Below, one piece after another: positions 38,466 through 57,859 of a stretch of 64,000 bases of DNA. The translations under genes were made by a program, and so were the position numbers. Each line of letters opens with the position of its first letter. Within the stretch, counting starts at the first letter, position 1. The notes below the pieces were generated by a model. That model worked only from the letters and a program-made list of their open reading frames with translations, did not search any database and had not been told where the DNA came from. This stretch comes from Candidatus Heimdallarchaeum aukensis (GTDB lineage: Archaea > Asgardarchaeota > Heimdallarchaeia > Heimdallarchaeales > Heimdallarchaeaceae): the NCBI GenBank assembly GCA_021513695.1, contig CP084166.1:1056001-1120000 (forward strand). The letters run 5' to 3'.

Positions 38466-38466
38466 A

Positions 38467-40812: not shown

Positions 40813-42117
40813 TTAGGTTGCTATACGTAATTTTGTTTTACAAGTTGGGCAAGTTCCTTTTTGAATAATCCATTGATAGAGATGATTTTTGTGGAAAATA
40901 TTATCACAAGAAGGACAACGAATAGAATTCTTAAGATTATTTATGCTTTGGAAGCAAATACTACATTTAGGTTTCATTTGAGACGTACCAACAATTCTAA
41001 AATCTTTTGGAATCGAAGAAAAGTCCACTCTAATAGCGTTCTCAGGTGCGTATTCTGCTTTTTTATATTTTATAGAAGGATAAGACTCAAAACTTTGATA
41101 CTTCTTATTCTTTCTTTTTCTAAGTACAATTGATACAATTATAACAGAAATAACTAGAAATGGTGGTCCAGCATAAAGCACTATTTTCAGAAATATTACT
41201 AAAATACTCAAAAAAGACAAAAATACATCACTTTCATACCATTTTTTAATTTTGAAACTATAATCTTTTCCAAAATCAATAGGTATAGAAAAAATAGAAC
41301 TTTTTACTTTAACAAAGAATAATCTTACAATGTTCAATTCTGTAGCATGATCATAAAAAAGCATTATTGAAGCAAAAGAAGAGGAGTTCGAGTATGTTTC
41401 ATTAAAACTAATAGAAAACCATTCAGCTTTTTGAATACTTTCAGAAAGCTTTAATGAAGCAGAAATCGACGATACTGGTCCTTGATAGGTTTCAGAAAAA
41501 ATTGCATTATTAGATTGATCACACACCATTATATCCAAATTCGAAATATTTTTTCCATAAAAATTAATGTTTACATATAGTTTTTTTAATTCAGTAAAAT
41601 GGTCTGGAATTCTTTCTAAACTAAAGTATAATCGGTTTGTCTGTGCTAAGTCTATAAAAGAGTTATAAGTCCAGATTATAGGTTCAGTGAGATTCAAGTT
41701 CCATGAAAAAACAATTTCCTGAACAAATTTATTAACAAATTGTAGTATATAAATTCCAGGTTTTAATTCTTCTGTAATTAAAAAGTGCTTTTCTTTGTCT
41801 CTAGCTGTTATTAACCAATTATTTAGATTTTGCATATCTTTTTCATGGATTAATAATATACCAAGTCCAGTGTAATCATCATCTAATATAATTTCTCCCC
41901 ATTCACCAACTATAACTGAAATTTCGAGAGTTGCAGGTTCATCTAAATAGACATAATACTCTGTTTCTGAGAATGTATCATCTAGTTTCAAAGAAAAAGA
42001 TGAAGAATTCGATTCTTTTTTAATATAATCTGTAGTTCTTTCTGAAATAGCATAAGTACAAAAAAAGTAAGAAGAAAAAAGAACTAATAGTACTAGCAAA
42101 GTAATTTTCTTTTTCAT
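40813..42117 (-). CDS. Type-I membrane protein with extracellular domain and cytoplasmic C-terminal RING-like zinc finger
   Basis: Signal peptide, ~300-aa ectodomain, TM helix, then C-x2-C-x12-C-x2-C-x4-H-x2-H-x10-C-x2-C (CSICFQSINNLKNSIRCPSCDNIFHKNHLYQWIIQKGTCPTCK). This has RING-H2-like FH...W...CPxC[KR] features. Confidence 0.6.
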   Translation of the reverse strand: MKKKITLLVLLVLFSSYFFCTYAISERTTDYIKKESNSSSFSLKLDDTFSETEYYVYLDEPATLEISVIVGEWGEIILDDDYTGLGILLIHEKDMQNLNNWLITARDKEKHFLITEELKPGIYILQFVNKFVQEIVFSWNLNLTEPIIWTYNSFIDLAQTNRLYFSLERIPDHFTELKKLYVNINFYGKNISNLDIMVCDQSNNAIFSETYQGPVSSISASLKLSESIQKAEWFSISFNETYSNSSSFASIMLFYDHATELNIVRLFFVKVKSSIFSIPIDFGKDYSFKIKKWYESDVFLSFLSILVIFLKIVLYAGPPFLVISVIIVSIVLRKRKNKKYQSFESYPSIKYKKAEYAPENAIRVDFSSIPKDFRIVGTSQMKPKCSICFQSINNLKNSIRCPSCDNIFHKNHLYQWIIQKGTCPTCKTKLRIAT

Positions 42118-44225
42118 TTTTTAGCTCCATTTTGTTTTAATATTAATGCACTTAAACTTATGAAACTTATTAGTATAACAAGAAATTGGAAGTCTGCTGT
42201 TACACCGTAATAATGTTCAAAAGGTTCATTCTTACTATCAAGGTTGAAAGAAACAAATATCTCACCTTCATGATATGAAGGATAGATTAGAACAAAGCAT
42301 TCGTCCTCTGGTAAAAGTACTTCAACAAATCCAGAAGCGATCTCTGTCCAATTCACGTCGTAAATAATAATTTTCATTTCTACATACTCTGAATCGGCTA
42401 ATATAGTTCTCTGCTCGCTGAGATTTAATCTATTATCGATGTACAGAAGAATTGATTGATTATATGTTAAAGTTATGGTCATATTCTGTTCAAATTCCAA
42501 GTTTATCTTTTCTACATTGTAAATATTAACATCGATTGCAATGTTTGTCCAAATTTTTATCTTGTAGAGAGAAAGAGATGAAAGACTCAAGTTGATGAAA
42601 TCTTGGCCTGTTTTTTCATAAACTATTTCTCCTTTCTTAACATCTAAACAAATAATATTTACTGGAGATTCTGCATCAATGAGCCCAATTGTACTATTTT
42701 CTTTAGCTTCTAGATAGAATATGGTACTTTGGTTTTCATAAAGATGGAATGTGAATCGCTCATTTGGTAAAAGATTCAAGTACTCAACATTTTCTCCTAA
42801 AGGAGCTGTATATATGCCTGTTACAATATCATTACCTAGATAATCTTCGGTGTAAATATAATAACTCAGTAGCTCATCTTCATCATCATATTTTAATGAT
42901 AAAATAAAGGTATCACCAGATTGATTGGTAGCTTGAGCAATAACCCAAGTAAGATTGTCATTATAACGGTAAAAAACTTCAACAAAAGGTACTCGGGAAA
43001 CATCTAAAACCTCAACTATGATATTAACATACTTTTGTTCAGTGTTGAAATCTTCAGTGTAAGAAGCCCAAGCTCTTATTTCAGGTGGTAAATCATCAAC
43101 TAAGACTCGAAAAACTTTTTCAATTGTTTGAGTAGATGAAGTATCACTTTCAATTGTTAAATAGGTAACAGTAAGGAATATTTTAAGAGCTTTCTCAACA
43201 GAGTAAGTCTCGATGAAATATTTAATTATTCTTGGTAGATCAGCAGTTGAAGGAAATTCTTCTGTACCAATTCTGACATAGGTTCCATGAGTAATTTCAG
43301 CACCTAAACTTAATCTTTCAATAGTCAATTCATCTGAACCTTTCGCTGCAACAGTACACAAAATAAACTTTTCTTCAGCTAATTGTTCATACAAGTTTTG
43401 TAAATCTCTTGTAGAAACCTTTATTCCATCATCTCCAGCTTCATCAGTAATTAAGACAATAAGATTAGGAACATCCTCTCTCCAATCCATTTGATACATA
43501 GCCACCCATAAAGCATCACCCCAAGGTTCAATAGAGCCAGAAGCTTTCGTTTTTTTCAATTTTTTAACGATTTGTTGAACATCAGAGGTTAAAGGTGTAA
43601 CTAGTTCTTCAAAAAGGTAAGGATTTTCTTTTTCTCCTCCGAAAAGAACTAGACCTATTCGTAAATCATTTATTGTATCTGAAAGTTCATTCACTACTGA
43701 GATTAAGTCAGAAGTTAAAGCTTCAATTTCATCGTCCATCGAACCAGATTGATCTAAAACAATAACTAAATCCAGAGATTCACTTATAGTTTCATTTGTT
43801 GTTACATTTACTTTATATTCTTTTGAAAGGTAGGTTTCATGTCCATTTAAAGTCCCTACAGTTTCAAAGGCACTGTTACTTTCTTCGCCACCATCACTCA
43901 CTAAAACGCCTAAATCATTCAAAGAGAAGTTTAATTTCACATCATAAGCTGCAGTTTCATTAATATTGGTTATATTGAAGTAAAATGAGAACTGATTTTG
44001 AGATTTTATACTTGGCATCTTATCTTCTCTGTGACTTTCTAAATTAGTATTGAAAGATACCTTAAGTTCAGGTTCATCTCTCTCTTGTGTAGTAGTAATT
44101 AAACTTTTGATTTCGTTTTCTGTATCACCAATATTTTCAATATTTCCATCAATCTTTATCCCGCCCAATATAAATCCAGCTATCAAAAGAAGGATTAATA
44201 CTTTTTTTAACTTACCAGTAATCAT
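42114..44225 (-). CDS. Cell-surface protein with von Willebrand factor A (vWA) domain, N-terminal and C-terminal TM segments
   Basis: MIDAS motif LVIVLDQSGSMDD, downstream T and D ligands, N-terminal TM and C-terminal anchor. Start reassigned to MITGKLKK (ATG at 44225). The 4-bp overlap with the RING-like gene indicates an operon. Confidence 0.7.
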   Translation of the reverse strand: MITGKLKKVLILLLIAGFILGGIKIDGNIENIGDTENEIKSLITTTQERDEPELKVSFNTNLESHREDKMPSIKSQNQFSFYFNITNINETAAYDVKLNFSLNDLGVLVSDGGEESNSAFETVGTLNGHETYLSKEYKVNVTTNETISESLDLVIVLDQSGSMDDEIEALTSDLISVVNELSDTINDLRIGLVLFGGEKENPYLFEELVTPLTSDVQQIVKKLKKTKASGSIEPWGDALWVAMYQMDWREDVPNLIVLITDEAGDDGIKVSTRDLQNLYEQLAEEKFILCTVAAKGSDELTIERLSLGAEITHGTYVRIGTEEFPSTADLPRIIKYFIETYSVEKALKIFLTVTYLTIESDTSSTQTIEKVFRVLVDDLPPEIRAWASYTEDFNTEQKYVNIIVEVLDVSRVPFVEVFYRYNDNLTWVIAQATNQSGDTFILSLKYDDEDELLSYYIYTEDYLGNDIVTGIYTAPLGENVEYLNLLPNERFTFHLYENQSTIFYLEAKENSTIGLIDAESPVNIICLDVKKGEIVYEKTGQDFINLSLSSLSLYKIKIWTNIAIDVNIYNVEKINLEFEQNMTITLTYNQSILLYIDNRLNLSEQRTILADSEYVEMKIIIYDVNWTEIASGFVEVLLPEDECFVLIYPSYHEGEIFVSFNLDSKNEPFEHYYGVTADFQFLVILISFISLSALILKQNGAKK

Positions 44226-44227
44226 AT

Positions 44228-44310
44228 ATATCAAGATATCGATATACATACAACTATATAAAAGTTTCTCTTTCACAGAGTATAAGAGAAATATATCAAA
44301 ATATCGAAAT
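44228..44310. promoter_or_regulatory. Two copies of an 18-bp direct repeat, ATATCAAGATATCGATAT at 44228-44245 and ATATCAAAATATCGAAAT at 44293-44310, in a divergent promoter region
   Basis: Seen directly; 16/18 identical. One copy sits just upstream of each divergent operon start. Confidence 0.4.
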
Positions 44311-44340
44311 ATTTATAACATGTATAAATGATTCTTAAAT

Positions 44341-44694
44341 ATGGAAAAACTACTGAACAGAGTAGTTGAGCTTTTAGAAGAGATCAACACAAAATTGAGT
44401 AGAATAGAAAAAAAATTAGAAGGAGAAGGAGAGATTAATATACCTTCTTCAATTGATTTATTAACAAAAATGACTAAAGCGCAAAGATTGACTTATTTTG
44501 CTGTACAAAAAATCGGAGAAGCGACTTGTTCAGAAGTAGCAGAAGAGACAGGAAGAAGTATGAATTTAGAGTCAAGGTATTTAAGGAGATTATATGAAAT
44601 GGGAGTTTTAGGAAGAAAACGTGTTCCTGTTTCAGATAAAGAAGAAGAATGGAAGGGGACAGAAGTGAAGTATTTCATAAAGGAGGAGAAGTAA
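44341..44694 (+). CDS. Small winged-helix (MarR/TrmB-like) DNA-binding protein
   Basis: QRLTYFAVQKIGEATCSEVAEETGRSMNLESRYLRRLYEMGVL fits an HTH plus wing. The stop abuts the start of the ParA-like gene. Confidence 0.5.
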   Translation: MEKLLNRVVELLEEINTKLSRIEKKLEGEGEINIPSSIDLLTKMTKAQRLTYFAVQKIGEATCSEVAEETGRSMNLESRYLRRLYEMGVLGRKRVPVSDKEEEWKGTEVKYFIKEEK

Positions 44695-45462
44695 ATGAAA
44701 ACAATAAGTGTTCATAGTTATAGAGGAGGAACAGGAAAAACAACTTTTTTGTTAAATATTGCAGGAGAGTTAGTAACAAGAGGAAAAAAAGTTTTAGCTA
44801 TAGACTTTGATTTAAGAGCACCAGCATTTCAATCTTATTTTAAAATTGATAAACTGAACTATTTGAGTGACTACCTGTTAAATAAAAAGCATTTAGAAGA
44901 AGTTATTGTTCAAGCAGAAGAAAGAGGAAATGGAAGAATAGATTTGATTTTTTCATCTATGGAATTTTTAAAGCAACATTCAAAACAAAGAGATAAGCTT
45001 GTGAGAGATGATACAGTTTATCTTTCAAAGTTGTATCAATTGCAAAAAGAAGTAGAAGAGAATTATGATTATTTATTAATAGATACAACCCCAGGTTTCT
45101 TTTATAGATCAATTGATGCAATGATGATATCAGATATTCTCTTGATTGTTTCTACACCAACCATTTCTAATGTTCAAGGATTAGAAGAGTTATGGAGAAA
45201 TGTCTATTCTATGCTTAAAGAAGATGTAAATATGTACTTATTAATTAATATGATAGAAAAAGAGGGAGAAAAAGTAGATAAAGAATTAGTAGAAAAAAGT
45301 ATAGAAGAGCTAAAAAAAATGGGGAAGAAATATTTTGCAAATAAGTTGATAGAAATACCAGATTATGGAGCAATGGGAGAAAGAATACATTCGTTTGAAC
45401 AAGAACCAAATAAAGAATTTCTAAATAAGATATCAGAATTAATAGATTTACTAAATGGATAA
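44695..45462 (+). CDS. ParA/MinD-family P-loop ATPase (deviant Walker A with Arg in place of the signature Lys)
   Basis: MKTISVHSYRGGTGKTT aligns to the ParA N-terminus xKGGxGKTT. Walker B-like LLIDTTPG. Confidence 0.75.
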   Translation: MKTISVHSYRGGTGKTTFLLNIAGELVTRGKKVLAIDFDLRAPAFQSYFKIDKLNYLSDYLLNKKHLEEVIVQAEERGNGRIDLIFSSMEFLKQHSKQRDKLVRDDTVYLSKLYQLQKEVEENYDYLLIDTTPGFFYRSIDAMMISDILLIVSTPTISNVQGLEELWRNVYSMLKEDVNMYLLINMIEKEGEKVDKELVEKSIEELKKMGKKYFANKLIEIPDYGAMGERIHSFEQEPNKEFLNKISELIDLLNG

Positions 45463-45475
45463 TAGAGGGAAATAG

Positions 45476-46840
45476 GTGAAAGGTGAGAAGGAAAAAGTAA
45501 AGGATTTAAAAAAGGTCCAAAGTTATTTGAAAGATTCTAAAAAAAATCTTTTACTTTTAAAAAGAGGAAAGAAGCCAAGAAGAAAGCTTAAGTTTCTCAT
45601 TAAAGATCACCTTTTTTTCACAATTTTATTCTTAGTCCTAATAGTAGGAGCAACAACTATTCCCCTCTTAATTAAAGAGAAGACAGATGATAAAATAGAG
45701 CAACCAGAAGAGAAAAAAGTAAAGGAAACGCTTACTCTTCTATCGACAAATTTCACAGATAGTGAAGGTATTCCTATAAACGAGTTAGGTAATTACACTG
45801 AATCATCTAAATTAATTATCCTCTCCACTCTTTCATTTTCAATGCTATATCTGGCAGGCTTTAACATAACAATTGAGCAGTTATCACTTCAGAAAGACAA
45901 TATTCTTTCAATTCTTAATGATGGTTCCTTTGTTCAGTTTAACAACAATAGTCAAAAACTTTCTATTTTCTATCAATTTTTGGGCTTATATGCTCTAATC
46001 CAGCTTCTATATGCAACAAAAAACACTGAGATCGGCTTTAGTATTGATATCTTATTCAACAGTTTGAACAAACAATTGAGGGAATATTACAATAAAGAAA
46101 ATAGGCTATTTATTGATAAAAACGCTACAGAAGCTTTTTTGGTTGACCAATCTTTAGCTTTGTGGGTTATTGCTATCACAATACTCTACTTTAATGTAGA
46201 ATCAATATTTGAATTTTATTTACCTGATATAATTCAAGATGTGTTATACAGTTTAAATCAAGATTATAGAAACGCAACAACTAATAAAATTGTGAGCTCA
46301 ATAAGCAATAAGACAAAAGAGCCAATACAATTAGAAGTGACTTCCTTTGATTTATTAATCTTAGTAGCAGCATTATCCAGAGTAAACTTGCTATATGATT
46401 ACTTCTTTGATAATGATTTAAGTAGTATAAATTTGTTTGAAAATATTATTAACCAGTATACAGATGAGAAACTGATAGTTTACGAAAAAAGATTTCTTAA
46501 TGGACATCTACTAATAAGAAATCAGTGTTTTTTTACTCTAACATCATACCTTTTACACTTAACAGTTACAGGAAATCAAAGTTTGAATGTTGTAACAACA
46601 AACTATTGGAAAGATAATAAGGGTTTCATTGAGGAAATTAATGCAAATAAGTTTTCAGCAGAAGCAAACTACTATGGATTGATAACTTTAGCTAGCCCAG
46701 AATGGAGTAAAGGAGAATATTTCTATATTCAAGACAATTATAAGGGAAATGCCGTAACCTCTAGAGCAGATGTGTTAACGATATTCGTATCATTAGTGAT
46801 AGTATTCATCATAAATAAGAGAAGAAAAAGAATAAAATAA
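45476..46840 (+). CDS. Bitopic membrane protein with large extracytoplasmic domain (hypothetical)
   Basis: Basic N-terminus, TM helix at aa ~45-65, C-terminal TM plus KRRKRIK tail. Confidence 0.45.
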   Translation: MKGEKEKVKDLKKVQSYLKDSKKNLLLLKRGKKPRRKLKFLIKDHLFFTILFLVLIVGATTIPLLIKEKTDDKIEQPEEKKVKETLTLLSTNFTDSEGIPINELGNYTESSKLIILSTLSFSMLYLAGFNITIEQLSLQKDNILSILNDGSFVQFNNNSQKLSIFYQFLGLYALIQLLYATKNTEIGFSIDILFNSLNKQLREYYNKENRLFIDKNATEAFLVDQSLALWVIAITILYFNVESIFEFYLPDIIQDVLYSLNQDYRNATTNKIVSSISNKTKEPIQLEVTSFDLLILVAALSRVNLLYDYFFDNDLSSINLFENIINQYTDEKLIVYEKRFLNGHLLIRNQCFFTLTSYLLHLTVTGNQSLNVVTTNYWKDNKGFIEEINANKFSAEANYYGLITLASPEWSKGEYFYIQDNYKGNAVTSRADVLTIFVSLVIVFIINKRRKRIK

Positions 46841-46844
46841 CAAT

Positions 46845-47495
46845 TTAATTACCAATTAGCCCTTGAGTAATAGAAAAACTAGTTTCATCTTTAATTTGAT
46901 TGTAAAATTGTTTTAGTATTTTTAATCGTCGTCTCGCAAGCCTTTTGGTGAAACAGAAATGCATTCTTGAAGGAAGAAGAAAAAGTTTATCATCAAAATG
47001 AAGTAACATCTCATCTATATCTCTATTGTGCTCTAAACTGAAAGAAATTACACGAAAAAGGCCGATAGAACCTAAAGCATCCAACATATCTGCATCTTGT
47101 AAGATTTTGCCTTCAATACTCGTAGGCTCTCTACTTTTACTGAAACGGTGTTCAAGAATATTAACACGAACTTCCTCTGCTAAATCAGGAAAACCTCGCT
47201 CAGAAAGAAAGTCAAAAGCTATTTTTGAACCCATTTCAGCATGACACTCTCCTGTTTTAGACTCTTCTGGGCGAGCAACATCATGAAAAAGGGCACTTAA
47301 TAAACAAACATCAAGAAAAACATGGAGCTTGACTCCAATAGAATAACACAAGTCAATAACACGAATAGTATGCTCTAAAGAGTGAGTAGAAGAATCATTG
47401 TCTAATTTAGAAGAAACAAAAGAATATCCTTCTTTAAAGATTTTAAGAAATAAAGAATAGTCTTTAATATACTTGGCTTTGTAATGAGAAATCAT
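46845..47495 (-). CDS. HD-domain metal-dependent phosphohydrolase
   Basis: H...HD motif (HTIRV...ALFHDVARPEE) and downstream His/Asp ligands. Confidence 0.75.
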   Translation of the reverse strand: MISHYKAKYIKDYSLFLKIFKEGYSFVSSKLDNDSSTHSLEHTIRVIDLCYSIGVKLHVFLDVCLLSALFHDVARPEESKTGECHAEMGSKIAFDFLSERGFPDLAEEVRVNILEHRFSKSREPTSIEGKILQDADMLDALGSIGLFRVISFSLEHNRDIDEMLLHFDDKLFLLPSRMHFCFTKRLARRRLKILKQFYNQIKDETSFSITQGLIGN

Positions 47496-47527
47496 TAAAC
47501 AATTAAAAAACCTCAGCTATTAATAAT

Positions 47528-49165
47528 TTATGAATAGGCATTTTCATATTCTTCATTATTTGCAGTTAAGCATGAAATTCGGCTATAAATTTCTTCAAAA
47601 TATGATCGTGAATAAATAGTTTCAGAAATGTTATAGTGGTCTTGAATCACACTTAAAGCTTTGTAATAAATTTCCTGAATCAGAAAAAATATATTAACAT
47701 CAAACATGTTTTTTCCAAATGATTTTGGAATCTTATGTAAACCATGAAGTGGATTAATGCAAAACTCTGTATTGAGCTCTGTTAATCCAGACCAATCACT
47801 GTGACTAATACCAGCTGTTGGACCGTAAAACAAATCATAGTATTTTTTGTCTCCAATGTCTTCAGCCATTTTTCTAATACTAGTTTTATCAGCCCAACTA
47901 CCTGTGAGCTTTATTTTTATTAGATCTGATAAACCTTTTTCTGTTAAAATTCTATCAATTTGCTTAATTTTTTTTTCATATCCTTTTGGTTTATATTCCT
48001 CTAATTTCATTTTTTCATTCTTTTTTTCACCATAACCATATTCTTTAAACTTTGCATATAATTCTTCATCATCTTTTAGTAATAACCACTTTAAAACAAA
48101 ATATGTTTCTAAATGGTTTCTTAGTAGAATATAGCCAATAGATGGTTCTTGGAAAACTAAATAATTGGAAAAAAATTGAAAATTTGACGCTAGTCTAGAA
48201 ATAAGTCCAGCAACGATATCCTCTTTGGATGGATTATATATGTTAATTTTGATTTTTTTCCACATTTGATTGATTTCAAGATCAATACTATCAATCAAAT
48301 AAAGTCGCATTTCGGTAAGTTCATACCAAACTTGATTATATTCTTGAATATTTATCTTTCTCATGGAAGGAATACAAGGAGATAATAGTCCATTTTTCAT
48401 CCAGAATTTTTTTGACCAATTTTGATCAATAAAATTATCTAAAAATATAGCTGATATGCTTCGCGCCGATGATTCAACCAATTTTTTGTCTCCCTGCGGA
48501 TATACCGATAGTGCTTTAATAATCCTCGAACAAGTTTCTTGTTCTAACCCGATTATTTTTCTCTCTTCCATCATTCTCATTAGAACAAGTACTCGCATTA
48601 ATGATGCAAGATCACCATGACTCTCATATAACTCGATAATAAGATTAGAAATAACATCTAAAATCTCATCTTTTTGACTCTCGGAAAATGGTTTTACGTT
48701 AAATAAATAATTAAGAGAATCTTCTTGATAAATATTCATTATATCCTCAAAACGCGTTCTAATAAAAATAGACGCAAAAATGTGTTGAATTTCATTTAAG
48801 AAATCTTTTTGATGCTCTAAAGGAATATTAGAAAATTCGCTTACCAAGCCAAATGAGACAGCATCAGATTGAAGATATTTTTGAATTAATTGAGTAGTCT
48901 TTCTGTAAAGATAAAGAGCTTTATGATGATCATAAGTAGTGAATAAACTAGCTACCCAAAGAAACTCAGGAAGTTGTTTTTTTGACCAATCAACTTCTAT
49001 TATCTTATCCTCTCCTAACAGATATAAGAGGGGGGAAATCAAATGTTTCTTATATCGTTTGTGTTTTAAATACTTATCTTTTTTGTGTTTCATAAAAGAT
49101 ATTATTGAAAAATATAATATAAAATATTCGAAATTTAATTTTTTAATATTAATAAAATAAAGCAT
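47528..49165 (-). CDS. Large hypothetical protein (no recognisable domain)
   Basis: 545-aa ORF with good local coding character, 33 bp upstream of the HD gene. Start probably internal (MKHKKDKY). Confidence 0.45.
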   Translation of the reverse strand: MLYFINIKKLNFEYFILYFSIISFMKHKKDKYLKHKRYKKHLISPLLYLLGEDKIIEVDWSKKQLPEFLWVASLFTTYDHHKALYLYRKTTQLIQKYLQSDAVSFGLVSEFSNIPLEHQKDFLNEIQHIFASIFIRTRFEDIMNIYQEDSLNYLFNVKPFSESQKDEILDVISNLIIELYESHGDLASLMRVLVLMRMMEERKIIGLEQETCSRIIKALSVYPQGDKKLVESSARSISAIFLDNFIDQNWSKKFWMKNGLLSPCIPSMRKINIQEYNQVWYELTEMRLYLIDSIDLEINQMWKKIKINIYNPSKEDIVAGLISRLASNFQFFSNYLVFQEPSIGYILLRNHLETYFVLKWLLLKDDEELYAKFKEYGYGEKKNEKMKLEEYKPKGYEKKIKQIDRILTEKGLSDLIKIKLTGSWADKTSIRKMAEDIGDKKYYDLFYGPTAGISHSDWSGLTELNTEFCINPLHGLHKIPKSFGKNMFDVNIFFLIQEIYYKALSVIQDHYNISETIYSRSYFEEIYSRISCLTANNEEYENAYS

Positions 49166-49183
49166 AATTTTTATAATAGTTAA

Positions 49184-49576
49184 GTGAATAGTTTAGTTAT
49201 GAACAATAAAAAAATAAACAAGAATCAAGGAGAAAAACAAGAGTCTCAAGCTTTTACCATGTCAATTTTTTCTAGACGCTGGGGACATGAAGATAACTAT
49301 ATTGTATTTATGTGGGAAGAAGGTTGGAAAATATCATCACATAGTGGTATTGTTGAATGTAATAAAAGATTTGAACCAGGATTATATGACATACTTAAAC
49401 ATGACTCGATTAATTACCCTAAAAATCTTCCTCTATATTTCGAATGGTTTTGGGAAGAAGCTCAAGAACAAGGATTAAACCATGAAGAAATTCAAGAAGG
49501 ATTGACAGAACTTACTAACTGGATAAACAGATGTGAAATTTCAACTCCTTCAAAAGGAATATTTGAAAGATTTTAA
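49184..49576 (+). CDS. Small Trp-rich hypothetical protein
   Basis: 130-aa ORF between the unknown 545-aa gene and the OLD-family gene. Confidence 0.4.
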   Translation: MNSLVMNNKKINKNQGEKQESQAFTMSIFSRRWGHEDNYIVFMWEEGWKISSHSGIVECNKRFEPGLYDILKHDSINYPKNLPLYFEWFWEEAQEQGLNHEEIQEGLTELTNWINRCEISTPSKGIFERF

Positions 49577-49670
49577 AATTTGCATGTAAAATCAAAGGCT
49601 ATATTAGACAACATAAAATGATGTCTCCATATGATTGCTAAGATTGACACAATATATAAAAAGAATTTTT

Positions 49671-51815
49671 CTAATTTAAATTACCTAAGAATTCTAAAAA
49701 AGCTAAAAATTCAGTATTTTTATTTTTAATTAATTTTATAACTAAATTGAAACATTCTTCAAATGTCATATCTTTCCAGTCGTCTTTTTTGAATTTTGTT
49801 ACTGTCTTTTTAATCATACCTTCTAAATCATTCTCCCAAGAGAAAATATTGTAATTCTTTGCAAAACTAATAATCTCCTTTTTCCTTTCTTGTATATTAG
49901 TTGTTTTTGAAGAAAAAATTTCATCTAAATTTATATTACACCGTTGTTTCAAAATTTTACTAATATAACTATTAGTCAAAGAATTTTTAGGTTTAAGAAA
50001 TGCATCAAAATCACATATTAAAACATACTTAATATCAAAGAAATCTGCTATCGATAAAGCCTTGGAAATATCACCGGTACCATCAATTGAAATAACATCC
50101 CAATTTAAGAAATTCGTGCTTGAAAGATTAAGTTCTTTTTGAATATGATGATTCTCCAGAACAGAGAATAAAGTTGTAACAATTTTATTGTCATATGTTC
50201 CTTCAACAAAAATAACATTGGAAGCAAAAAATATGCTTTTTATGTTAGGATCCAAGAGAAAACGATTATAACGCTCTTCATCTTTAAGTCCTTCAAGAAA
50301 AGATCTTAAATATTTAATCTGACTTCCAGTTTTTGTTTTTAAACATCGAAGAATTGAATATAGAAGTTCATTAGATATCAAATCAGGACTATGAGTGACA
50401 ACTAAATAAGAATGCTCATTATCTTGTTTAATATAATTACCAAGTTTCTTTCTAAAAGAAGGATGAAGAGTTTTACCAGGTTCATCTAATATTATAGTAT
50501 CAGCTTCAAATCCATAAATGGAACATAAAACCATTAAAATCTCATAAGCTCCTCCAGGCGAGCAATTTAATCTAAAAGCTTTATTATTTTGCAAGTCGTG
50601 AAATTGAATATCAGGACGTTTACCTGTTAATACTGCACCTTCATCTAATTTAATAGAATAGGAGTTTTGTTGAGAATAAGAAGAATCAGGTTCAATTAAG
50701 AGAACAGGAGCTTTTTTTTCATGAACCTTTTCGTCAACAAGGACAATGTTAAAATTATATTTTTCTTCAGTCATAGTTTTGAAATGTTCTCTGATACGTT
50801 CAAAAATTTCTTGCTCTTTGGGATTTGAACTCATTTTCTTTTGAAATAGTGCATATTTGATTCTTTCAAGAGTTAGTACATTTGTAATGTTTTCTCTCCA
50901 AGGATAACTAAAACCATTTTCTAATAATCCTCTATCTTCTCTTAAAATAACAACTTTTTGTCTAATGATTTTTGAAATAAAATTGCCAAAATATTTGTAG
51001 TAATTATAAATTTCAATTTTATAACCCATTTTTCGAAGCAAAATTCTAAAATCTGCAGATAAATTATGAAGTTCAGGTAAAAAATCAATATTACTGAAAT
51101 CTAATTCAGATAAATATAAAATTAAGGCTTTTTCAAATATATATTGAAAAAAAATATTTTTTAGAAAATCTTCATTATTTTTAACAAGTTCTTTAATATC
51201 TTCTCCAGGATATAAATCATTAAAGGATTTGACGAAAGAAGTAATATTTCGAAAATCTAGATATTGATTTTTACTTAATGTTAAAATTTCATCTAATTTT
51301 TTCTCTTTGTCAACTAAAATAATTATATTTGTTGAAGGATTACTTAAGTAAATGTTTAAAGATTCATTAAATGAAAGTATTAAAAAATATTTTAATCTCT
51401 CAGGATTGTTGCTTTCAGAACAAAAGCCTATTGTTAAATCAGAAAAAGAATCCTTGAGAAAATTCTCCCAATTGTTAAAGAAAGAATAGATTAATGCTCT
51501 ACCGAATTCTTGATCTGAACTTAAATGCATTGAACAAAAAGATAAGACAAGAAATTTACGTAAAAAAATACGTTCATCTTCACTTAGTTCAAAGGTTAAA
51601 TAAATTTTAGATTGAGTTTTGGTGTCCCAAAAAGGAAAATAAGACCAATCTAAGTTAGAGGTTGCAGAGTTGGATAATATAAAATCAATTATTCTAACAA
51701 GATTAGATTTTCCAGAACCATTCTCGCCAACAATAATAGACTTTTGATTAAGATTTATTTCTTGTTCTTCAGAATAAGAAAGAAAGTTCTTGATATAAAT
51801 CTTCTTAAGAATCAT
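49671..51815 (-). CDS. OLD-family (overcoming lysogenization defect) ABC-type ATPase with C-terminal Toprim nuclease domain
   Basis: N-terminus IKNFLSYSEEQEINL...IIVGENGSGKSNLVRIIDFIL (AAA_15/21-type Walker A). Distal D-loop/H-loop ILDEPGKTLHP...LVVTHSPDL. C-terminal Toprim-like VIFVEGTYDNKIV and LICDFDAF (E and DxD). Confidence 0.7.
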   Translation of the reverse strand: MILKKIYIKNFLSYSEEQEINLNQKSIIVGENGSGKSNLVRIIDFILSNSATSNLDWSYFPFWDTKTQSKIYLTFELSEDERIFLRKFLVLSFCSMHLSSDQEFGRALIYSFFNNWENFLKDSFSDLTIGFCSESNNPERLKYFLILSFNESLNIYLSNPSTNIIILVDKEKKLDEILTLSKNQYLDFRNITSFVKSFNDLYPGEDIKELVKNNEDFLKNIFFQYIFEKALILYLSELDFSNIDFLPELHNLSADFRILLRKMGYKIEIYNYYKYFGNFISKIIRQKVVILREDRGLLENGFSYPWRENITNVLTLERIKYALFQKKMSSNPKEQEIFERIREHFKTMTEEKYNFNIVLVDEKVHEKKAPVLLIEPDSSYSQQNSYSIKLDEGAVLTGKRPDIQFHDLQNNKAFRLNCSPGGAYEILMVLCSIYGFEADTIILDEPGKTLHPSFRKKLGNYIKQDNEHSYLVVTHSPDLISNELLYSILRCLKTKTGSQIKYLRSFLEGLKDEERYNRFLLDPNIKSIFFASNVIFVEGTYDNKIVTTLFSVLENHHIQKELNLSSTNFLNWDVISIDGTGDISKALSIADFFDIKYVLICDFDAFLKPKNSLTNSYISKILKQRCNINLDEIFSSKTTNIQERKKEIISFAKNYNIFSWENDLEGMIKKTVTKFKKDDWKDMTFEECFNLVIKLIKNKNTEFLAFLEFLGNLN

Positions 51816-51961
51816 TGATTAAAAATGAATTTTAACTATAAGTATTTTTCTTTTATAATTAAAGAAAATAGTAAGAAGAAAAAGATTAAACAAAATTTAG
51901 AATAGATAGAAAATTTTAAATGAGAAAATAAAAAGAGAACTGTAGATAGAAACAGCAAATT

Positions 51962-52038
51962 GACCGGGTAGTCTAGCTTGGTACGATACATGCTTGGGGT
52001 GCATGTGATCCTGGGTTCGAATCCCAGCTCGGTCACCA
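51962..52038 (+). tRNA. tRNA-Pro (anticodon GGG), CCA encoded
   Basis: Manual fold: acceptor GACCGGG/CTCGGTC (one G-U pair), anticodon stem CATGC/GCATG with loop TTGGGGT (anticodon GGG, G37), T-arm CTGGG-TTCGAAT-CCCAG, discriminator A, then CCA. Confidence 0.85.
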
Positions 52039-52385
52039 TGTATTATTCTCCAATTACAGCAAACATAGATGAAATATGCGAAATTTCTTTTTTTCATTGA
52101 ATTATTTGTACTATTTTTTTTACTATAAGATAAATTTACATGTAATTACTTATCTATATTAATGTAGTAAATATTGTTTGTTTAAAATCACATTATTTTA
52201 AGAACTATTATAAAAAATGTTGTAAATGATAATTTATTTTCTTGTTATTGAAAAATAGGAACAAATAAGGATTTCTTCATTAAGTACAAAGTCTTAAATA
52301 TTGAGCAAAATAAACACAAATAATTACACATAGAAAAAACTAAACAATAATGTCAAATTAAGCGTTGATACTCTATAATATGTAA

Positions 52386-52785
52386 TTGTCCCCAAATTTC
52401 CTTGCTTTGTTTGGCATTTGTGTTGGAATGAGTAGTATGAAACTTATCAAGGTATCAATTCTGACCACTTTATTTTCTCTATATCTATTTTTTTCAAGTT
52501 CACAACATTTAGTTTTTGCAGCTAATCTGGAACTTAATTCACAATTGCCGTTATTATGGACTTTTACAACTGACAGTCAATTCTATTCAAGCCCTGCTAT
52601 TGGAGATTTGGATGGAGATAACATATATACGTAAAACAAATCCTTGGAAATGGGATACAGATTGGGATACATTACCAGATGGATATGATATATTTCCCCT
52701 ATTTCCAGATGGATGGATCTATTATGGGATACTTGGTTCAGTTATTGTATTAGTTGTGGTAAAATTATACAAAAAGAAAAGATAA
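52386..52785 (+). pseudogene. Degenerate remnant of a surface-protein gene (signal peptide plus first FG-GAP-like repeat, frameshift, then C-terminal TM anchor only)
   Basis: ORF1 has a signal peptide and GDLDGD. Overlapping ORF2 in another frame ends with a TM helix plus KKKR, the same termini architecture as the intact surface proteins here. Confidence 0.4.
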
Positions 52786-52901
52786 ACTAATAAAACAGAA
52801 TATTGGTCTATATCCTTGTTTGAAATACTAATCTGTTATCTATCATTTTTTTATGCTTGATAAAAAAGTGAATAGAATATCTGAATTCTTTTTTCTTTTT
52901 T

Positions 52902-53444
52902 TTACATTTTTCTTATTATTTCTATTGCTTCTTCTACTTCTTTTACTTTTATTATTTTTTCTCTTTCTTTTTCATCTATTTTTTCTTCTTTTGCTATTTT
53001 TTCGCTCCACCCACCTGATTTTTCTATTAATATTATTTTTTTACCATATTGCCACGCCATTGCTATTTCTGATAATGTCCCTGCTCCTCCTCCTATCCCT
53101 ACCACCACATCTGCGGACAGTACTATTATTTGATTTCTCGCGTAACTCATTCCTGTTGGTATTATGATATCCACGTATTCATTTGCTTGTTCTTTTTTTG
53201 TTGTCGGCAATATTCCTATAGTCATTCCTTCTCTGTATTTTTTTGCCTTTTTTGCTCCTTTACACACTTCTTTCATTATTCCGTCTTTTCCTCCACATAT
53301 TATTCTGCAATTATTTTCTACTAGTTTTTCTCCTAGTTCCTCTGCTATTTTTTTCAGTTCTTCTTTTATTTCTCCCCCTTTGCCTATTACTGCTACTTGC
53401 TTTATTTTATTCACCTTCGTCCCTCCAAATGTTATTATTTTCAA
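52902..53444 (-). CDS. LOG/TIGR00725-family (SLOG-type Rossmann) protein
   Basis: VAVIGKGG...CGGKDGIM...VVVGIGGGAGTLSEIAMAW matches the GGGxGTxxE signature of LOG-like/DprA-related Rossmann proteins. Confidence 0.65.
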   Translation of the reverse strand: MKIITFGGTKVNKIKQVAVIGKGGEIKEELKKIAEELGEKLVENNCRIICGGKDGIMKEVCKGAKKAKKYREGMTIGILPTTKKEQANEYVDIIIPTGMSYARNQIIVLSADVVVGIGGGAGTLSEIAMAWQYGKKIILIEKSGGWSEKIAKEEKIDEKEREKIIKVKEVEEAIEIIRKM

Positions 53445-53500
53445 AAAGTTGTCCTAGTTTTTATGTTTAAGCTTTCTTCTTTTCTTTATTTAATTATTCT

Positions 53501-54403
53501 TTAATTATATCTTTTTGACATTGCTTTCATTAGTTTTGCTTGGAACTTTGTTCTTTTGTTAAAGGGTATATTTAGCTGATATCTTTTTGTAAACAGTTTT
53601 TGCAATTCTCTATGTTCGTTATGGTACATTCCTATTACAAACTTTGCTTGTTCTTCAAGTAATGTTTCATAATTTTCATTTAATATTAAGTCTATATAGT
53701 AATCTAGGAAATATTTTTCTTCTTTTGCTATTTTTTCTACTTTTGACTGCTTATTTTTTACTATTACTTTTTCTTCTCTTGCTTTTTCATGTTTTCCAAA
53801 GAAGTACAATACGTTGTGAACTAGTTGGTTTTGGCATGTTTTATCTGAATACGAAATTAGGGAAAAGTCATAGCTTGCTTCGTATGGTATTGCTTTATCT
53901 ACTAGTGCTGCTAGTTCAATTAGTCCTTTTTCACTTAAATTTGGTTGTAATATTACTTTATCCTGTATCATTGCTGATACAACAATTTCTCTTAGAGTTT
54001 TATCGTCTATTTTTTCATAGATTTTGTTTTTTTCTTTCCTAAAATGCTTTTCTGTGAGAATTTGTGGTTCTTGTTCTATTGAATCAAATAAATCTGAATA
54101 AATTAGAGGAGAAGCATAATAAAATAATGAATTAAAATTATACTCTTCTGACGGAACTATTATATTTTGTGCAAGTGCTTTTGGTCTTCCAAACGGATCT
54201 ACCCCATCACTTCTTACTAGTTTTACTACTATATCTCCTGTGTTTTGCATTGTAAATTTAGAAACGTATTTTATATGCTTTTTTTGCTTGGATGACAATT
54301 CTGGTAGAAAAATAATTGAATTTTCCTTTAATTCTTCTGGAATATTGGCTAACCAGATTTTATATCCATACTTGTCATCTCTCTTAGTTACAACTTGATA
54401 CAT
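53501..54403 (-). CDS. Hypothetical protein (unknown partner of the SLOG-like gene)
   Basis: 300-aa ORF 56 bp upstream of the SLOG-like gene on the same strand. Confidence 0.45.
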   Translation of the reverse strand: MYQVVTKRDDKYGYKIWLANIPEELKENSIIFLPELSSKQKKHIKYVSKFTMQNTGDIVVKLVRSDGVDPFGRPKALAQNIIVPSEEYNFNSLFYYASPLIYSDLFDSIEQEPQILTEKHFRKEKNKIYEKIDDKTLREIVVSAMIQDKVILQPNLSEKGLIELAALVDKAIPYEASYDFSLISYSDKTCQNQLVHNVLYFFGKHEKAREEKVIVKNKQSKVEKIAKEEKYFLDYYIDLILNENYETLLEEQAKFVIGMYHNEHRELQKLFTKRYQLNIPFNKRTKFQAKLMKAMSKRYN

Positions 54404-54528
54404 CTACAGTTCATCTTTTTGATTTTCAGTTATTTTGCCTTTATTCAATAAATATCTTTCTCTTGTAAAAATTTTTCCTCTTTCTTTTTGAAAATATTCT
54501 TATAGTTTTTTTAGTTAATTAGTATATC

Positions 54529-55560
54529 TTGAAAAAGAACTATGATTTATCTGAATTATTTTCTGTTATCGACAATCAACTAGTTAACTCTCCTCTCAAA
54601 GCAATTGAACTTTTAGAAGATAATTCAGAGCACTTCGAGGACAATATCCTTTTTTTCTTGCGTTTAGGAGAACTTTATTTCAATCAAAAAAAATATGACA
54701 GTGCTTTACTTTCTTTTTCCCGAGCACTAGAGCTTGAACCAGAGAATGTGGAAGTATTATCACATATCAGTGATGTTTACATCAAGAAAAGAGATTACAC
54801 CCAAGCTGAAGTTGCTCTCCTAAAGGCTATAGAATATGAACCTAAGAACACTCTATTACTAAGTAAACTTGCTAATTTGTATTTTGATATTGGTAAATAT
54901 TACGAGTCTCAACAATTGCTCATTCAAGCAATAGAAGAAGAACCTAAAGCTGAATACTATTCTTTACTTGCTACTATCTATAAGAAAATGGATAATGATA
55001 TTGCTTGTTGGAACACTTTAGTAAAAGCAGAACAATTGTTTCCAGATGATATAAACATACTTAACCAGATTGGAGCTTATTATTTTGATTTGGACAATTT
55101 CTCAAAAGCTTTATCTTATTTTCAACGAGCTCTTTCTTTAGACCCTGAAAACCAGCATTCTCTTTTTCAGTTAGCAAAAACTTTTGAGAAAATGAACGAT
55201 CCTTACAATGCTATTGATATGTATTCAAAAATTGTAGAGATTAATCCTGATCATGCTTTAGCTTATTTTTATTTAGGAAAACTTTATTCTTCTCTTGGCG
55301 ACTTCGCTCAAGCACTTATTTGCTATTCTAAATGTTTAGAACTTGATCCTTCCTTCTCTGATGCTGCTTTAGATTTAGCTTCTATACACTGGGTATCAAA
55401 AGAATATAACAAAGCTTTATCTATTTTGAAAGAAGCATTAAAATTTTCAAAAGACAAGGAGATTTATAAGATGATGAGCAATATTTACGAAGAAACAGGC
55501 AATGAAAATAAAGCTAAATATTATAGAGAACTATCTAGAACAAATAATAACGAGGATTAA
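54529..55560 (+). CDS. TPR-repeat protein
   Basis: At least 8 tandem 34-aa repeats with the W-LG-Y/A-F-A-P pattern (AL..F..AL.L.P.N). Confidence 0.8.
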   Translation: MKKNYDLSELFSVIDNQLVNSPLKAIELLEDNSEHFEDNILFFLRLGELYFNQKKYDSALLSFSRALELEPENVEVLSHISDVYIKKRDYTQAEVALLKAIEYEPKNTLLLSKLANLYFDIGKYYESQQLLIQAIEEEPKAEYYSLLATIYKKMDNDIACWNTLVKAEQLFPDDINILNQIGAYYFDLDNFSKALSYFQRALSLDPENQHSLFQLAKTFEKMNDPYNAIDMYSKIVEINPDHALAYFYLGKLYSSLGDFAQALICYSKCLELDPSFSDAALDLASIHWVSKEYNKALSILKEALKFSKDKEIYKMMSNIYEETGNENKAKYYRELSRTNNNED

Positions 55561-55562
55561 GA

Positions 55563-55970
55563 TTGTTACTTCTTCCTATTGTCTCTTTTTCACAAGGACT
55601 AAAAGGTACATATCTTCTTTTCATTAGTCTAGACAAAAAATTAACTATTAACCTAAGTAATAAACAATTTTCCCTCGAAAAAGCTAACTATATTTATGTT
55701 GGGAGTGCTTTTGGCTCTGGAGGACTAAAATCTCGGGTTTCTCGCCATCTTTTAAAAACAAAGAATAAACGCTGGCACATAGATTTTTTGACTAGTTCTG
55801 ATCATTCTGAAGTTGTAGGAGTAGTTTATTTTATTAATCAAAAAATTGAGTGCTATTTAGGTAAGCTTCTTTCTACTTTCTCTTCTTTAGAACCTGTTTT
55901 TGGTTTTGGAAACTCTGATTGTAAAGAAAATTGTGATAGTCATTTATTTAAAATTGTAAAAAAGGAATAA
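55563..55970 (+). CDS. GIY-YIG (Uri) superfamily endonuclease, DUF123/COG1833-like
   Basis: YIYVGSAFGSGGLKSRVSRHL followed by RWHIDFL resembles the GxYxYxGSA...R...H and HWHIDYL blocks of archaeal DUF123 Uri nucleases. Begins 3 bp after the TPR gene stop. Confidence 0.5.
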   Translation: MLLLPIVSFSQGLKGTYLLFISLDKKLTINLSNKQFSLEKANYIYVGSAFGSGGLKSRVSRHLLKTKNKRWHIDFLTSSDHSEVVGVVYFINQKIECYLGKLLSTFSSLEPVFGFGNSDCKENCDSHLFKIVKKE

Positions 55971-56037
55971 AATGAAGTTTTAATGATACCTTCAAATATC
56001 TTTTTGGGGTAAGATTTAATAAACAAATAATAAAAAT

Positions 56038-56445
56038 ATGTTTATGGCAAGTGCAGTTGTCGAGCAATTACTTAATCTTGCTGTTGAAATAGTTCTATTC
56101 TATGCTGCAGCAGCGATTATAAGCGCTTCAATGTTTTCTAAAAAAGCTAAGAAGTGGAGTTGGGTTAACCTGATCATGGCTATTATTGTAAGCTTAGCTT
56201 GGACTTTTTCAATCAATCTCTTTAACGGGCGAGCCGCCGCAGCGACTTTCGGTATCATACTATTTATTATTTGTTTCTTCTTGTGGACTATTGCTGCTGA
56301 TGTTTCTGATAGACGTGCAGCATATGCAGCTCTCTTATCGCTTCTACTATGGTTCCTTTTCTGTTGGGTTTTAATTATTATCCTCCACTTATTCGAAGTA
56401 CACTTATTTGACAGTATACCTTACTTATTTAGCTATTTCACATAA
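56038..56445 (+). CDS. Small 4-TM membrane protein
   Basis: 135 aa, four hydrophobic helices, Ala-rich. Its 3' end overlaps the radical SAM gene's 3' end by 8 bp (convergent). Confidence 0.4.
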   Translation: MFMASAVVEQLLNLAVEIVLFYAAAAIISASMFSKKAKKWSWVNLIMAIIVSLAWTFSINLFNGRAAAATFGIILFIICFFLWTIAADVSDRRAAYAALLSLLLWFLFCWVLIIILHLFEVHLFDSIPYLFSYFT

Positions 56446-57859
56446 AGAAATCAACAAATTGGTTAATATCCAAAGAATAATTAATTTTATTCTTTACCTT
56501 TTTTTCTTTCTCATACTTATCAAAAAAAAGAGGAAAACGCTCTTTCACTGTATCAATGAAGTAAATAAGTAATTCTACCAACCTAATATTTAATTCACAC
56601 TCTATTTTGTTAACATCACCTTCAACAGCTTGCTTTTCTTTCCAATCAACACAAGGTCCTCCGCAAATATACCTTATGGGACAAGAAGAACATTCTTGTA
56701 TTAAATCTACAAGTTTCACTACATCGTTTTCAAGATCTTTCATGGACAAATTCTTTTTCCATTCTCCAAGTTTGTATTTTTTGTTTCCAATAAGGCTAGA
56801 ACAAGGATAGATTTCTGAATTTGGGCTTAAACTCAGAGCTGTTTTCCCTGCGGGGCAACGAGTAATCAGTTTTTCTCTTGATAATAGTCTATTCAAATAA
56901 CGTGAGATATAATCAGTAGGGCCGATTTTCTTTAAAAAGGATAGTAGTTCTCCTTCATTTAAGTTGAGTAAATGATCTACTAAATCTTCAACCCTTTCTA
57001 GAAAAGAGTCTAATTTTCTTTTATCCCATGCTCGATAATGATTATTATCTATTCTAAGAAGCCTTAAAGAAACATAGTCAAAATATTCTGAATAATAAGA
57101 ATAGAGAATGAACAAGTCTTCTATGTTAGGATGAACAGGTATAATTAAGTGTTTTACTACATTTTTCTTTACTAGAGACAAATTATCTATTACTCTTCTT
57201 TTTACTTTTTCATTTTCGATATCAAGTGTAACAGTCAAAAAACCATATTTATTTACAAAATCAATAAAACTTTGTTTTGGTGAAAAAAAGTTAGTGGAAG
57301 GGAGGAAATAGTAAATGGGAAAAGAGTATTTATTTTTAATCTGTTCAATAAACAGAACCATTTCATTAAAATATTCAAAGTTAAGCGTAATTTCACTTGT
57401 ATAGAAAAAGCTTATTCCTAGCGCTGTTTCTGATTTAGCTTTCCTTTTTAAATCTGCAAAATGTATAATTATTTCTTTAGCTCTTTCTACATCTAACTTT
57501 TCGTTCTCTTTTTTTCTCTCATTTCTTGCATAACAAAACCAACAATTTAAATTACATTCATTTGAAGGATTAATTACCAAATGGTCAAAAGTAACAATTT
57601 CTTTATCGAAACTTGCTCTTTCTTTCTCAGTTTCTACAATAAATTTTCTTTTCTTTAACAATCCCATTTGTGTTAGGATATTTTGATACTCTTTTTCTGA
57701 ATAATACTCCTTTAAGTCCTTTAAAGACAAAAATCTTTTCTTTTCAGAACATAACTCTGAATTACTAATTCTCCAAAAAAATCTAGTTTCAGGAGTATAA
57801 AGATAGGATTTACCATTATAAGAAAAAATCAAGATGTTAGTATTTTCTAGATTTAGCAT
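56438..57859 (-). CDS. Radical SAM enzyme with C-terminal SPASM domain and ~100-aa N-terminal extension (peptide-maturase-like)
   Basis: CxxxCxxC at CNLNCWFCYA. C-terminal Cys cluster CSSCPIRYICGGPCVDW is typical of SPASM/twitch auxiliary Fe-S domains. The N-terminal extension precedes the core, as RiPP recognition elements do. Confidence 0.8.
   Translation of the reverse strand: MLNLENTNILIFSYNGKSYLYTPETRFFWRISNSELCSEKKRFLSLKDLKEYYSEKEYQNILTQMGLLKKRKFIVETEKERASFDKEIVTFDHLVINPSNECNLNCWFCYARNERKKENEKLDVERAKEIIIHFADLKRKAKSETALGISFFYTSEITLNFEYFNEMVLFIEQIKNKYSFPIYYFLPSTNFFSPKQSFIDFVNKYGFLTVTLDIENEKVKRRVIDNLSLVKKNVVKHLIIPVHPNIEDLFILYSYYSEYFDYVSLRLLRIDNNHYRAWDKRKLDSFLERVEDLVDHLLNLNEGELLSFLKKIGPTDYISRYLNRLLSREKLITRCPAGKTALSLSPNSEIYPCSSLIGNKKYKLGEWKKNLSMKDLENDVVKLVDLIQECSSCPIRYICGGPCVDWKEKQAVEGDVNKIECELNIRLVELLIYFIDTVKERFPLFFDKYEKEKKVKNKINYSLDINQFVDFFM

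Follow-up and report, generated by a model that had tools for sequence, protein, structure and literature searches.

What is the nature of the genes that lie against a proline tRNA gene in the Asgard archaeon Candidatus Heimdallarchaeum aukensis (Ca. H. aukensis), and do they act together? This archaeon has a closed 3.08-Mb genome (Wu et al. 2022, PMC8813620), of which we analysed a stretch of 64,000 nucleotides (contig CP084166.1, positions 1,056,001 to 1,120,000), referred to here as the window. An earlier note on this DNA had singled out positions 46845-52038, where an OLD-family ATPase-Toprim nuclease gene next to tRNA-Pro(GGG) was proposed to form a defence island with uncharacterised partner genes. 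We find that window 47525-51887 is probably a small accessory defence islet, located between a gene for an HD-domain phosphohydrolase and tRNA-Pro(GGG), and that its three genes, encoding the OLD nuclease, a DitA-like DUF5677 protein and a small M1E1E6-like protein, are likely to be independently mobile rather than parts of one co-evolved system. Each of the three is of a described family and the arrangement is typical of a small defence island. Some novelty resides in a branch of DitA proteins that lacks DitB, in an Asgard OLD clade with a large ATPase insertion, found here to be accessory, and in the apparent inter-domain transfer of the small gene. The islet is resolved to its junctions in a closed Asgard genome and places a standalone OLD gene and a DitA-like gene in the accessory gene pool of the archaeal lineage closest to eukaryotes.

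A block beside tRNA-Pro(GGG) is missing in a sister species

For comparison we used the closed genome of Ca. H. endolithica PR6, in which the corresponding locus (L009) was retrieved by scanning genome contigs with the flanking SLOG/TIGR00725 gene (95% identity). The flanks of the two species are collinear by blastn at 85-88% nucleotide identity, and the aligned segments of the window comprise 38001-40567, 40779-42004, 46624-47524, 51888-52060 and 52623-63164. The segment 46624-47524 includes the HD gene and the segment 51888-52060 consists of tRNA-Pro and its upstream region. The sequence between these two segments (window 47525-51887), which carries the DitA-like, 130-amino-acid (130-aa) and OLD genes, has no blastn counterpart in H. 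endolithica. This accessory block of ~4.36 kb was delimited by the blastn comparison and by junction alignments. The block is thus variably present at tRNA-Pro and not universally conserved, in agreement with the earlier proposal, and its absence at the syntenic tRNA-Pro of the sister species supports the defence-island reading. Moreover, two of the three block genes match PADLOC defence models, and a position of defence systems beside tRNA genes has been reported for this genus (PMC8813620).

The HD gene (46845..47495, minus strand), which encodes a 216-aa phosphohydrolase, is a conserved flanking host gene and lies outside the accessory block. The HD domain assigned to its product in the earlier note is supported by Pfam (HD, 2.3e-14), but the gene cannot be counted in a variable block spanning 46845-52038. 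In H. endolithica, the orthologue adjoins the same tRNA-Pro, with its start codon ~130 bp away, and its product is 87% identical over all 216 aa, close to the 85-88% found for the flanking genes at the nucleotide level. Because the HD gene stands beside tRNA-Pro in a genome that lacks the block, it is not a partner of the block genes. The right-hand landmark of the block is an intact tRNA-Pro(GGG) gene with an encoded CCA (51962..52038, plus strand; ARAGORN; Rfam RF00005, 55.8 bits). The open reading frame (ORF) coordinates, ARAGORN and Rfam all agree with the positions previously given for the ORFs and the tRNA, and an Rfam scan of the window returned tRNA only.

Within the block the DitA-like gene (47528..49093, minus strand), the small gene (49184..49576, plus strand) and the OLD gene (49671..51815, minus strand) are tightly spaced, with spacers of 95 bp and ~100 bp. 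The strands of the three genes alternate, so no operon is possible and they represent separate transcription units. In particular, the small gene is convergent with the OLD gene and divergent from the DitA-like gene; the divergent intergenic region (49094..49183), as read from the sequence, is short and AT-rich, and promoters in it are presumed only. The 5' ends of the OLD gene and tRNA-Pro are 146 bp apart, again in divergent orientation. The HD and DitA-like genes lie on the same strand with 32 bp between them. The GC content of the block is 0.267 compared to 0.304 for the window, and the OLD gene has the lowest GC of the 56 window genes (0.257, z = -2.3). A scan for sigma-70 promoters and terminators was uninformative in this archaeal host, with 39 sites versus 36 expected.

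The 714-aa protein has the domains and motifs of an OLD-family nuclease

The gene at 49671..51815 encodes a 714-aa protein (UJG41740.1) that GenBank annotates just as 'AAA family ATPase'. Scans of the window proteins with Pfam, PADLOC and NCBIfam showed that it matches Pfam AAA_15, SMC_N and AAA_21 as well as OLD-like_TOPRIM (1.9e-9), and that its best PADLOC model is Old (2.6e-28, 97 bits), with matches to many GajA models as well (GajA score 85 bits). The clade alignment, which consists of the 714-aa protein and its four closest relatives, contains invariant ATPase motifs, namely Walker A G30-x-N-G-x-G-K36-S37 (GENGSGKS 30-37), Walker B D444-E445 (LDEP 443-446), His451 and the H-loop His475 (THS 474-476). 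Invariant residues of the Toprim domain are Glu538, Gly579, D602-F-D604 and S/T659-W-E661. A profile of this clade searched against the PDB gave T. scotoductus OLD (TsOLD; 6P74) as the top match (4e-10) with the motifs in register, and the Toprim Glu and DxD align with the VEG and DED motifs of TsOLD. Glu538 is separated from the DxD motif by 64 aa and the DxD motif from SxE by 55 aa, in a region where the structural model is of moderate confidence (predicted local distance difference test (pLDDT) 55-70); the corresponding spacings in TsOLD are presumably about the same. The AlphaFold2 (AF2) model as a whole has a pLDDT of 71, with a low-confidence region at residues 180-390, and in Foldseek searches its fold corresponds to OLD enzymes of classes 1-3, with TsOLD, GajA and the OLD subunits of retron Eco8 matched at E-values between 1e-13 and 1e-10. 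Judged from its sequence, the 714-aa protein belongs to the OLD-family ATPase-Toprim nucleases and has its catalytic motifs intact. The earlier assignment is therefore borne out by Pfam, by PADLOC and by invariant motifs in register with 6P74, and the Toprim catalytic residues (E538, DxD and SxE) are all present.

These features allow a mechanism to be proposed. The ABC-type ATPase, presumably dimerising through a large insertion at residues ~90-420 that characterises this OLD clade, would control the C-terminal Toprim domain, and ATP binding and hydrolysis would gate a two-metal Toprim nuclease formed by E538, D602/D604 and S659/E661. By analogy with the class 1 enzymes P2 Old and Vc OLD, such an enzyme would attack incoming viral or plasmid DNA by nicking or cleavage and stop it from replicating. 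Vc OLD acts as a nickase, prevents the phage genome from being replicated and requires both of its active sites (PMC12392090).

Relatives of the protein are few, with six matches in a database of 5.8 billion proteins, the best of which are 47%, 44% and 31% identical. The five relative loci (L004, L006, L007, L008 and L050) and the window have no neighbour in common, and the neighbourhoods of the relatives contain no DUF5677, HD, M1E1E6, helicase, HNH, reverse transcriptase (RT) or split Toprim gene. One of these loci, L050, lies on a 304-kb contig (GCA_019057815.1) and encodes a protein that falls into one 90%-identity cluster with the closest OLD relative. The OLD gene of L050 is preceded by a complete type I restriction-modification (R-M) system with a PIN gene and by a DUF4145/PD-T7-4-like gene, and is followed by an SLFN_AlbA_2 (Schlafen/AlbA_2) gene; these surroundings form a defence island with another set of genes. 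Members of this single 90%-identity cluster have R-M, DUF4145 and Schlafen-like neighbours in L050 (1-13073) and TPR proteins as neighbours in L004. The two loci have a downstream trio of genes in common (products of 317, 95 and 135-139 aa) and differ in the neighbours of the OLD gene, which suggests island turnover around it. Among the matches listed in scans of metagenome and viral contigs with the OLD profile, we found remote P-loop proteins only.

The OLD phylogeny comprises classes 1-5 and eleven uncharacterised clades, U1-U11 (PMC12796447). The 714-aa protein resembles class 1 OLDs (phage P2 Old, TsOLD 6P74 and Vc OLD) in being a single polypeptide that joins an N-terminal ABC ATPase, in which the His of an 'LHP' motif follows Walker B, to a C-terminal Toprim bearing E/DxD/SxE, and in being encoded by a standalone gene with variable neighbourhoods. 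The solved OLDs are distant from it (~13-15% identity) and shorter (528-586 aa versus 714 aa), owing to its larger ATPase insertion, and its host is archaeal and without RecBCD. As the earlier note had reported, a UvrD-like helicase and an HNH partner are absent next to the OLD gene. This absence need not be treated as an anomaly: class 1 nucleases are defined by standalone genes in varying neighbourhoods, for which the lack of GajB or PtuB is expected (PMC12796447), and the OLD relatives too stand alone in changing surroundings. We thus attribute the missing partner to a class-1-like standalone lifestyle.

Gabija GajA (class 2) has the same two-domain architecture and the GajA structures 8X5I and 8SM3 are the top Foldseek matches (1e-13), but none of the GajA structures passes 1e-3 in the sequence-profile search with the OLD clade, and the UvrD/PcrA-like GajB that Gabija needs is found neither beside the 714-aa OLD nor beside its five relatives. 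With respect to retron-associated OLDs (class 3), no RT domain occurs among the window neighbours, the Rfam scan of the window showed tRNA and no msr/msd RNA, and with the NCBIfam model of the retron Eco8 effector the protein reaches 39.7 bits, where the cut-off is 250. PARIS (class 4) has AriA and AriB as separate adjacent genes, whereas here both domains are present in one 714-aa ORF. Cran1 (class 5), like the 714-aa OLD, is an OLD-family ATPase-nuclease from an archaeon and has its active sites intact, but Cran1 is core, essential and vertically inherited, in a conserved operon with a membrane protein, whereas the 714-aa OLD is accessory and has no membrane-protein partner. By its context, the 714-aa OLD is standalone and class-1-like, and it might fall in one of the uncharacterised clades U1-U11 (PMC12796447).

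In a 2026 preprint, metazoan OLD-like proteins are compared by alignment with an OLD of H. aukensis, and the case is made that they descend from the Asgard ancestor (10.64898/2026.08.18.745644). If the H. aukensis protein used there is the 714-aa OLD, the accessory status of the gene weakens the argument for vertical inheritance.

The 521-aa protein resembles DitA and lacks a DitB partner

The DitA-like gene corresponds to a 545-aa ORF that extends to 49165, the true start of which is probably M25 (521 aa; 47528..49093), as indicated by the GenBank protein and by homologue alignments. The ORF product had been described as uncharacterised and without a recognisable domain. Our scans instead identified Pfam DUF5677 (6.5e-16) and a nearly full-length match to PADLOC DitA (2.3e-31, 107 bits), in which residues 30-519 are aligned with positions 4-480 of the 486-position model. 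The protein is a member of the DitA/DUF5677 family, from which the Aditi system draws its DitA; Aditi is a validated defence system that Millman et al. reportedly described in 2022 as consisting of DitA and DitB. GenBank annotations of block genes as 'AAA family ATPase' and 'hypothetical protein' are thereby corrected.

As a control we examined the Aditi pair on C. difficile plasmid NZ_CP149720.1 (L049, 5007..7518), which scored 709 bits for DitA and 399 bits for the immediately downstream DitB (354 aa). The control genes overlap by 26 bp, adjoin a transposase gene and are annotated 'DUF5677 domain-containing protein' and 'hypothetical protein'. Like Aditi DitA, the 521-aa protein aligns nearly end to end with the model and has invariant W/F/C/R/H residues in common with it; the residues common to the DitA-like clade and true DitA are W226, F230, W231, C240, R325, G355, A410, H431, C445, H450 and H453. 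The relationship is remote (107 versus 709 bits, ~21% identity), and Arg300, which is invariant in the DitA-like clade, is a Tyr in true DitA. Taken as a sequence-based assignment, the 521-aa protein is a remote full-length homologue of DitA.

An exhaustive HMMER scan of the family yielded 851 cluster representatives (50% identity) at E <= 1e-3, and all 41 aligned family members match the DitA model (1e-31 to 1e-40). A word-indexed homologue search followed by a family-profile search returned only the protein itself and one further member. No match was obtained against phages by tblastn or against BFVD by Foldseek, and a related-locus search of viral contigs gave nothing. The AF2 model is all-alpha (pLDDT 89, predicted template modelling score (pTM) 0.83). 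The conserved C240, H431, C445, H450 and H453, together with arginines, may form a metal site, probably for Zn, with a structural or catalytic function.

A search of the 64-kb window by tblastn with true DitB gave noise only (E of 7 or more), and the gene downstream of the DitA-like gene is the HD gene, the product of which has no match to the DitB model. As no DitB is present in the window, the rules of DefenseFinder and PADLOC would not call Aditi. The 130-aa protein was considered as a DitB and rejected, as it has no DitB-model match and true DitB is ~355 aa and unrelated. Other members of the DitA-like clade are also solo, in a bacterial metagenome-assembled genome and on a Rhodococcus plasmid (L030 and L031), and no HD neighbour was found beside the DitA-like homologues examined. 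Because the clade occurs without DitB in the examined contexts, its members probably act alone, and in the proposed mechanism the DitA-like protein would function without DitB. A sizeable DitB-less branch of DitA/DUF5677 proteins with a conserved Cys/His cluster could provide a handle on the Aditi mechanism.

These data can also be combined into a more far-reaching proposal, which we put forward tentatively and regard as doubtful. The 521-aa protein might represent a large clade (~850 clusters) of DitB-independent, single-gene defence proteins that crosses domains and carries a Cys2-His3 metal centre on an all-alpha scaffold with a HEPN-like four-helix bundle. The same proposal would place the OLD gene in a small Asgard clade linked by the 2026 preprint to metazoan OLD-like genes, its accessory status arguing for horizontal spread over vertical descent.

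The small protein belongs to a widespread mobile family

The small gene encodes 130 aa when read from a GTG start (49184..49576, plus strand; UJG41739.1) or 125 aa from an ATG at 49199. Its product had been characterised merely as Trp-rich; it matches Pfam PF21648, M1E1E6-like (1.8e-11), and the integron cassette protein PDB 3FY6 (2.9e-7). Like the M1E1E6-like integron cassette proteins (PF21648, 3FY6), it shows a whole-domain match and resides in mobile accessory DNA, but its host is archaeal and no attC or IntI was seen. Plasmids of Bacillus mycoides and B. thuringiensis encode, in defence-island settings, proteins of ~220 aa whose C-terminal halves share 44% identity with the small protein. 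The small protein is thereby far closer to bacterial proteins than its neighbours in the block are to any, which suggests a recent inter-domain transfer of the small gene alone. M1E1E6-like homologues adjoin genes for a TIR protein, an ATPase and HNH pair, an OLD-family protein, HEPN and DUF4238 proteins and serine recombinases, and one is present in Burkholderia phage BgManors32. No DUF5677 gene was found beside the M1E1E6-like homologues in the contexts examined. Proteins of the M1E1E6-like kind often travel as passengers in plasmids, integron cassettes, phages and defence islands.

The block genes do not recur together

One alternative is that the three genes work as one system, for example as a DitA-like sensor, a small regulator or antitoxin and an OLD effector, which would be a new class of OLD systems with partners that replace GajB or PtuB. 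The genes are tightly packed and their gain or loss with respect to the sister species involved all three at once, and B. thuringiensis pMC319 carries an M1E1E6-like and an OLD-family gene at a distance of 2.2 kb. That OLD protein is only marginally similar to the OLD of the window (E 2.5e-4 over 88 aa), and no pairing is repeated elsewhere: the five OLD loci lack DUF5677 and M1E1E6 genes, neither OLD nor M1E1E6 genes occur at the three DitA-like loci, and the surroundings of M1E1E6-like genes vary. An all-against-all blastp comparison of the homologue neighbourhoods found no second shared gene. Together with the alternating strands, which are incompatible with an operon, these data make a single cooperating system quite improbable. 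We give still less credence to a two-gene effector or sensor module of the DitA-like and HD proteins, as had been suggested in the earlier note, in which HD would take the place of DitB. The two genes, being 32 bp apart on one strand, could now be co-transcribed. In H. endolithica, though, HD occupies the same place without the DitA-like gene, 87% identical and with its own upstream region; it has no DitB match, true DitB (~355 aa) resembles nothing in the window, and the other DitA-like genes have no HD neighbour. The module is already largely refuted by the sister-genome comparison.

Two further alternatives concern what the genes are for. The OLD protein could have a housekeeping role in chromatin or the cell cycle like that of Cran1 from Sulfolobales, the sole characterised archaeal OLD, which is essential and cell-cycle regulated and showed no antiviral effect (PMC12796447). 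Class 5 OLDs are inherited vertically across an order and are found in a conserved operon with a membrane protein (PMC12796447). By contrast, the present OLD gene is missing in the sister species, its relatives are patchy (6 in 5.8 billion proteins) with changing neighbours, and one of them is embedded between R-M and Schlafen-like genes, so that a Cran1-like role is very improbable. It is unlikely, though less so, that the block is a decayed remnant of a tRNA-associated mobile element, the genes of which served competition between elements, as old does for phage P2, and not host defence. In favour of this alternative are the low GC of the OLD gene, the plasmid and phage relatives of the small protein, an insertion sequence (IS) on the other side of the same tRNA in H. 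endolithica, and the tRNA-adjacent position in a genus in which CRISPR-Cas loci, mobile elements and other defence systems adjoin tRNA genes (PMC8813620, where the present locus is not described). A 9-nt repeat, ATTAAACAA, occurs at both block junctions (47494 and 51885) but is marginal, with an estimated chance expectation of 0.1-0.3, and is thus roughly at chance level in such AT-rich DNA. A Pfam scan found no integrase, transposase, recombinase, replication or structural gene in the block. A search allowing <=3 mismatches found no second copy of either half of tRNA-Pro. Integrases that target tRNA genes usually act at the 3' side, whereas the block lies on the 5' (promoter) side. The earlier suggestion of a tRNA integration hotspot is accordingly only circumstantial.

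Some of these observations, and several others, also weigh against an islet of independently mobile defence genes. The lack of mobility genes is one, as is the result of a search for direct repeats flanking the block, which gave only low-complexity AT-rich matches and no convincing target duplication. The independence of the three genes is judged from few contexts (~5 for OLD, 3 solo DitA-like and 6 for the small protein), and the DitA-like and small genes are compositionally ordinary, the OLD gene alone being atypical. With a single outgroup genome, gain in H. aukensis and loss in H. endolithica are not formally separable. As regards function, Cran1 is without antiviral effect, and a lone DUF5677 ORF assayed in E. 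faecalis did not figure among those active in defence (10.1101/2025.10.07.681051). The 'class 1' label of the OLD protein reflects context and not phylogeny, because the OLD clade matches the PADLOC models for Old and GajA almost equally well and the classes are not told apart by the fold search. Even so, an accessory defence islet of three independently mobile genes, which would act independently of one another, remains our preferred reading.

Other differences between the two Heimdallarchaeum loci

A second indel is present at window 42005-46623, which encodes a 720-aa VWA protein, a winged helix-turn-helix (wHTH) protein, a ParA/MinD-like ATPase and a 454-aa membrane protein and is missing in H. 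endolithica. A C-terminal remnant of the 454-aa ORF is kept at L009 13741..14010, showing that H. endolithica lost this segment. By description only, the module with the ParA-like gene is reminiscent of a four-gene module upstream of aloposon giant genes (PMC8813620). Window 40813-44276 contains, side by side on the minus strand, the genes for a RING-finger (zf-RING_2) protein and a VWA-domain protein; owing to the deletion next to it, the RING protein does not have the same N-terminus in the two species.

In H. endolithica, a DDE_Tnp_1 transposase gene (L009 11274..12218) is located 3' of the same tRNA-Pro. The corresponding place in the window, 52061-52900 (~840 bp), contains two broken ORFs, 52386..52634 and 52516..52785, the latter of which corresponds to the C-terminal end of an H. 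endolithica ORF of 176 aa and thus represents a decayed membrane-anchored gene. The SLOG/LOG-like TIGR00725 protein encoded at window 52902-53444 has weak matches to the SLOG domains of Thoeris ThsA/ThcA and of ShosA; as it is 95% identical and syntenic in the sister genome, it is a core gene product and not a defence component. The tRNA-Pro(GGG) genes themselves (window 51962-52038 and L009 12866-12942) differ by a compensatory change in the T-stem, CTGGG/CCCAG versus CGGGG/CCCCG, as well as by changes in the T-loop, and the 3' CCA is genomically encoded in both species.

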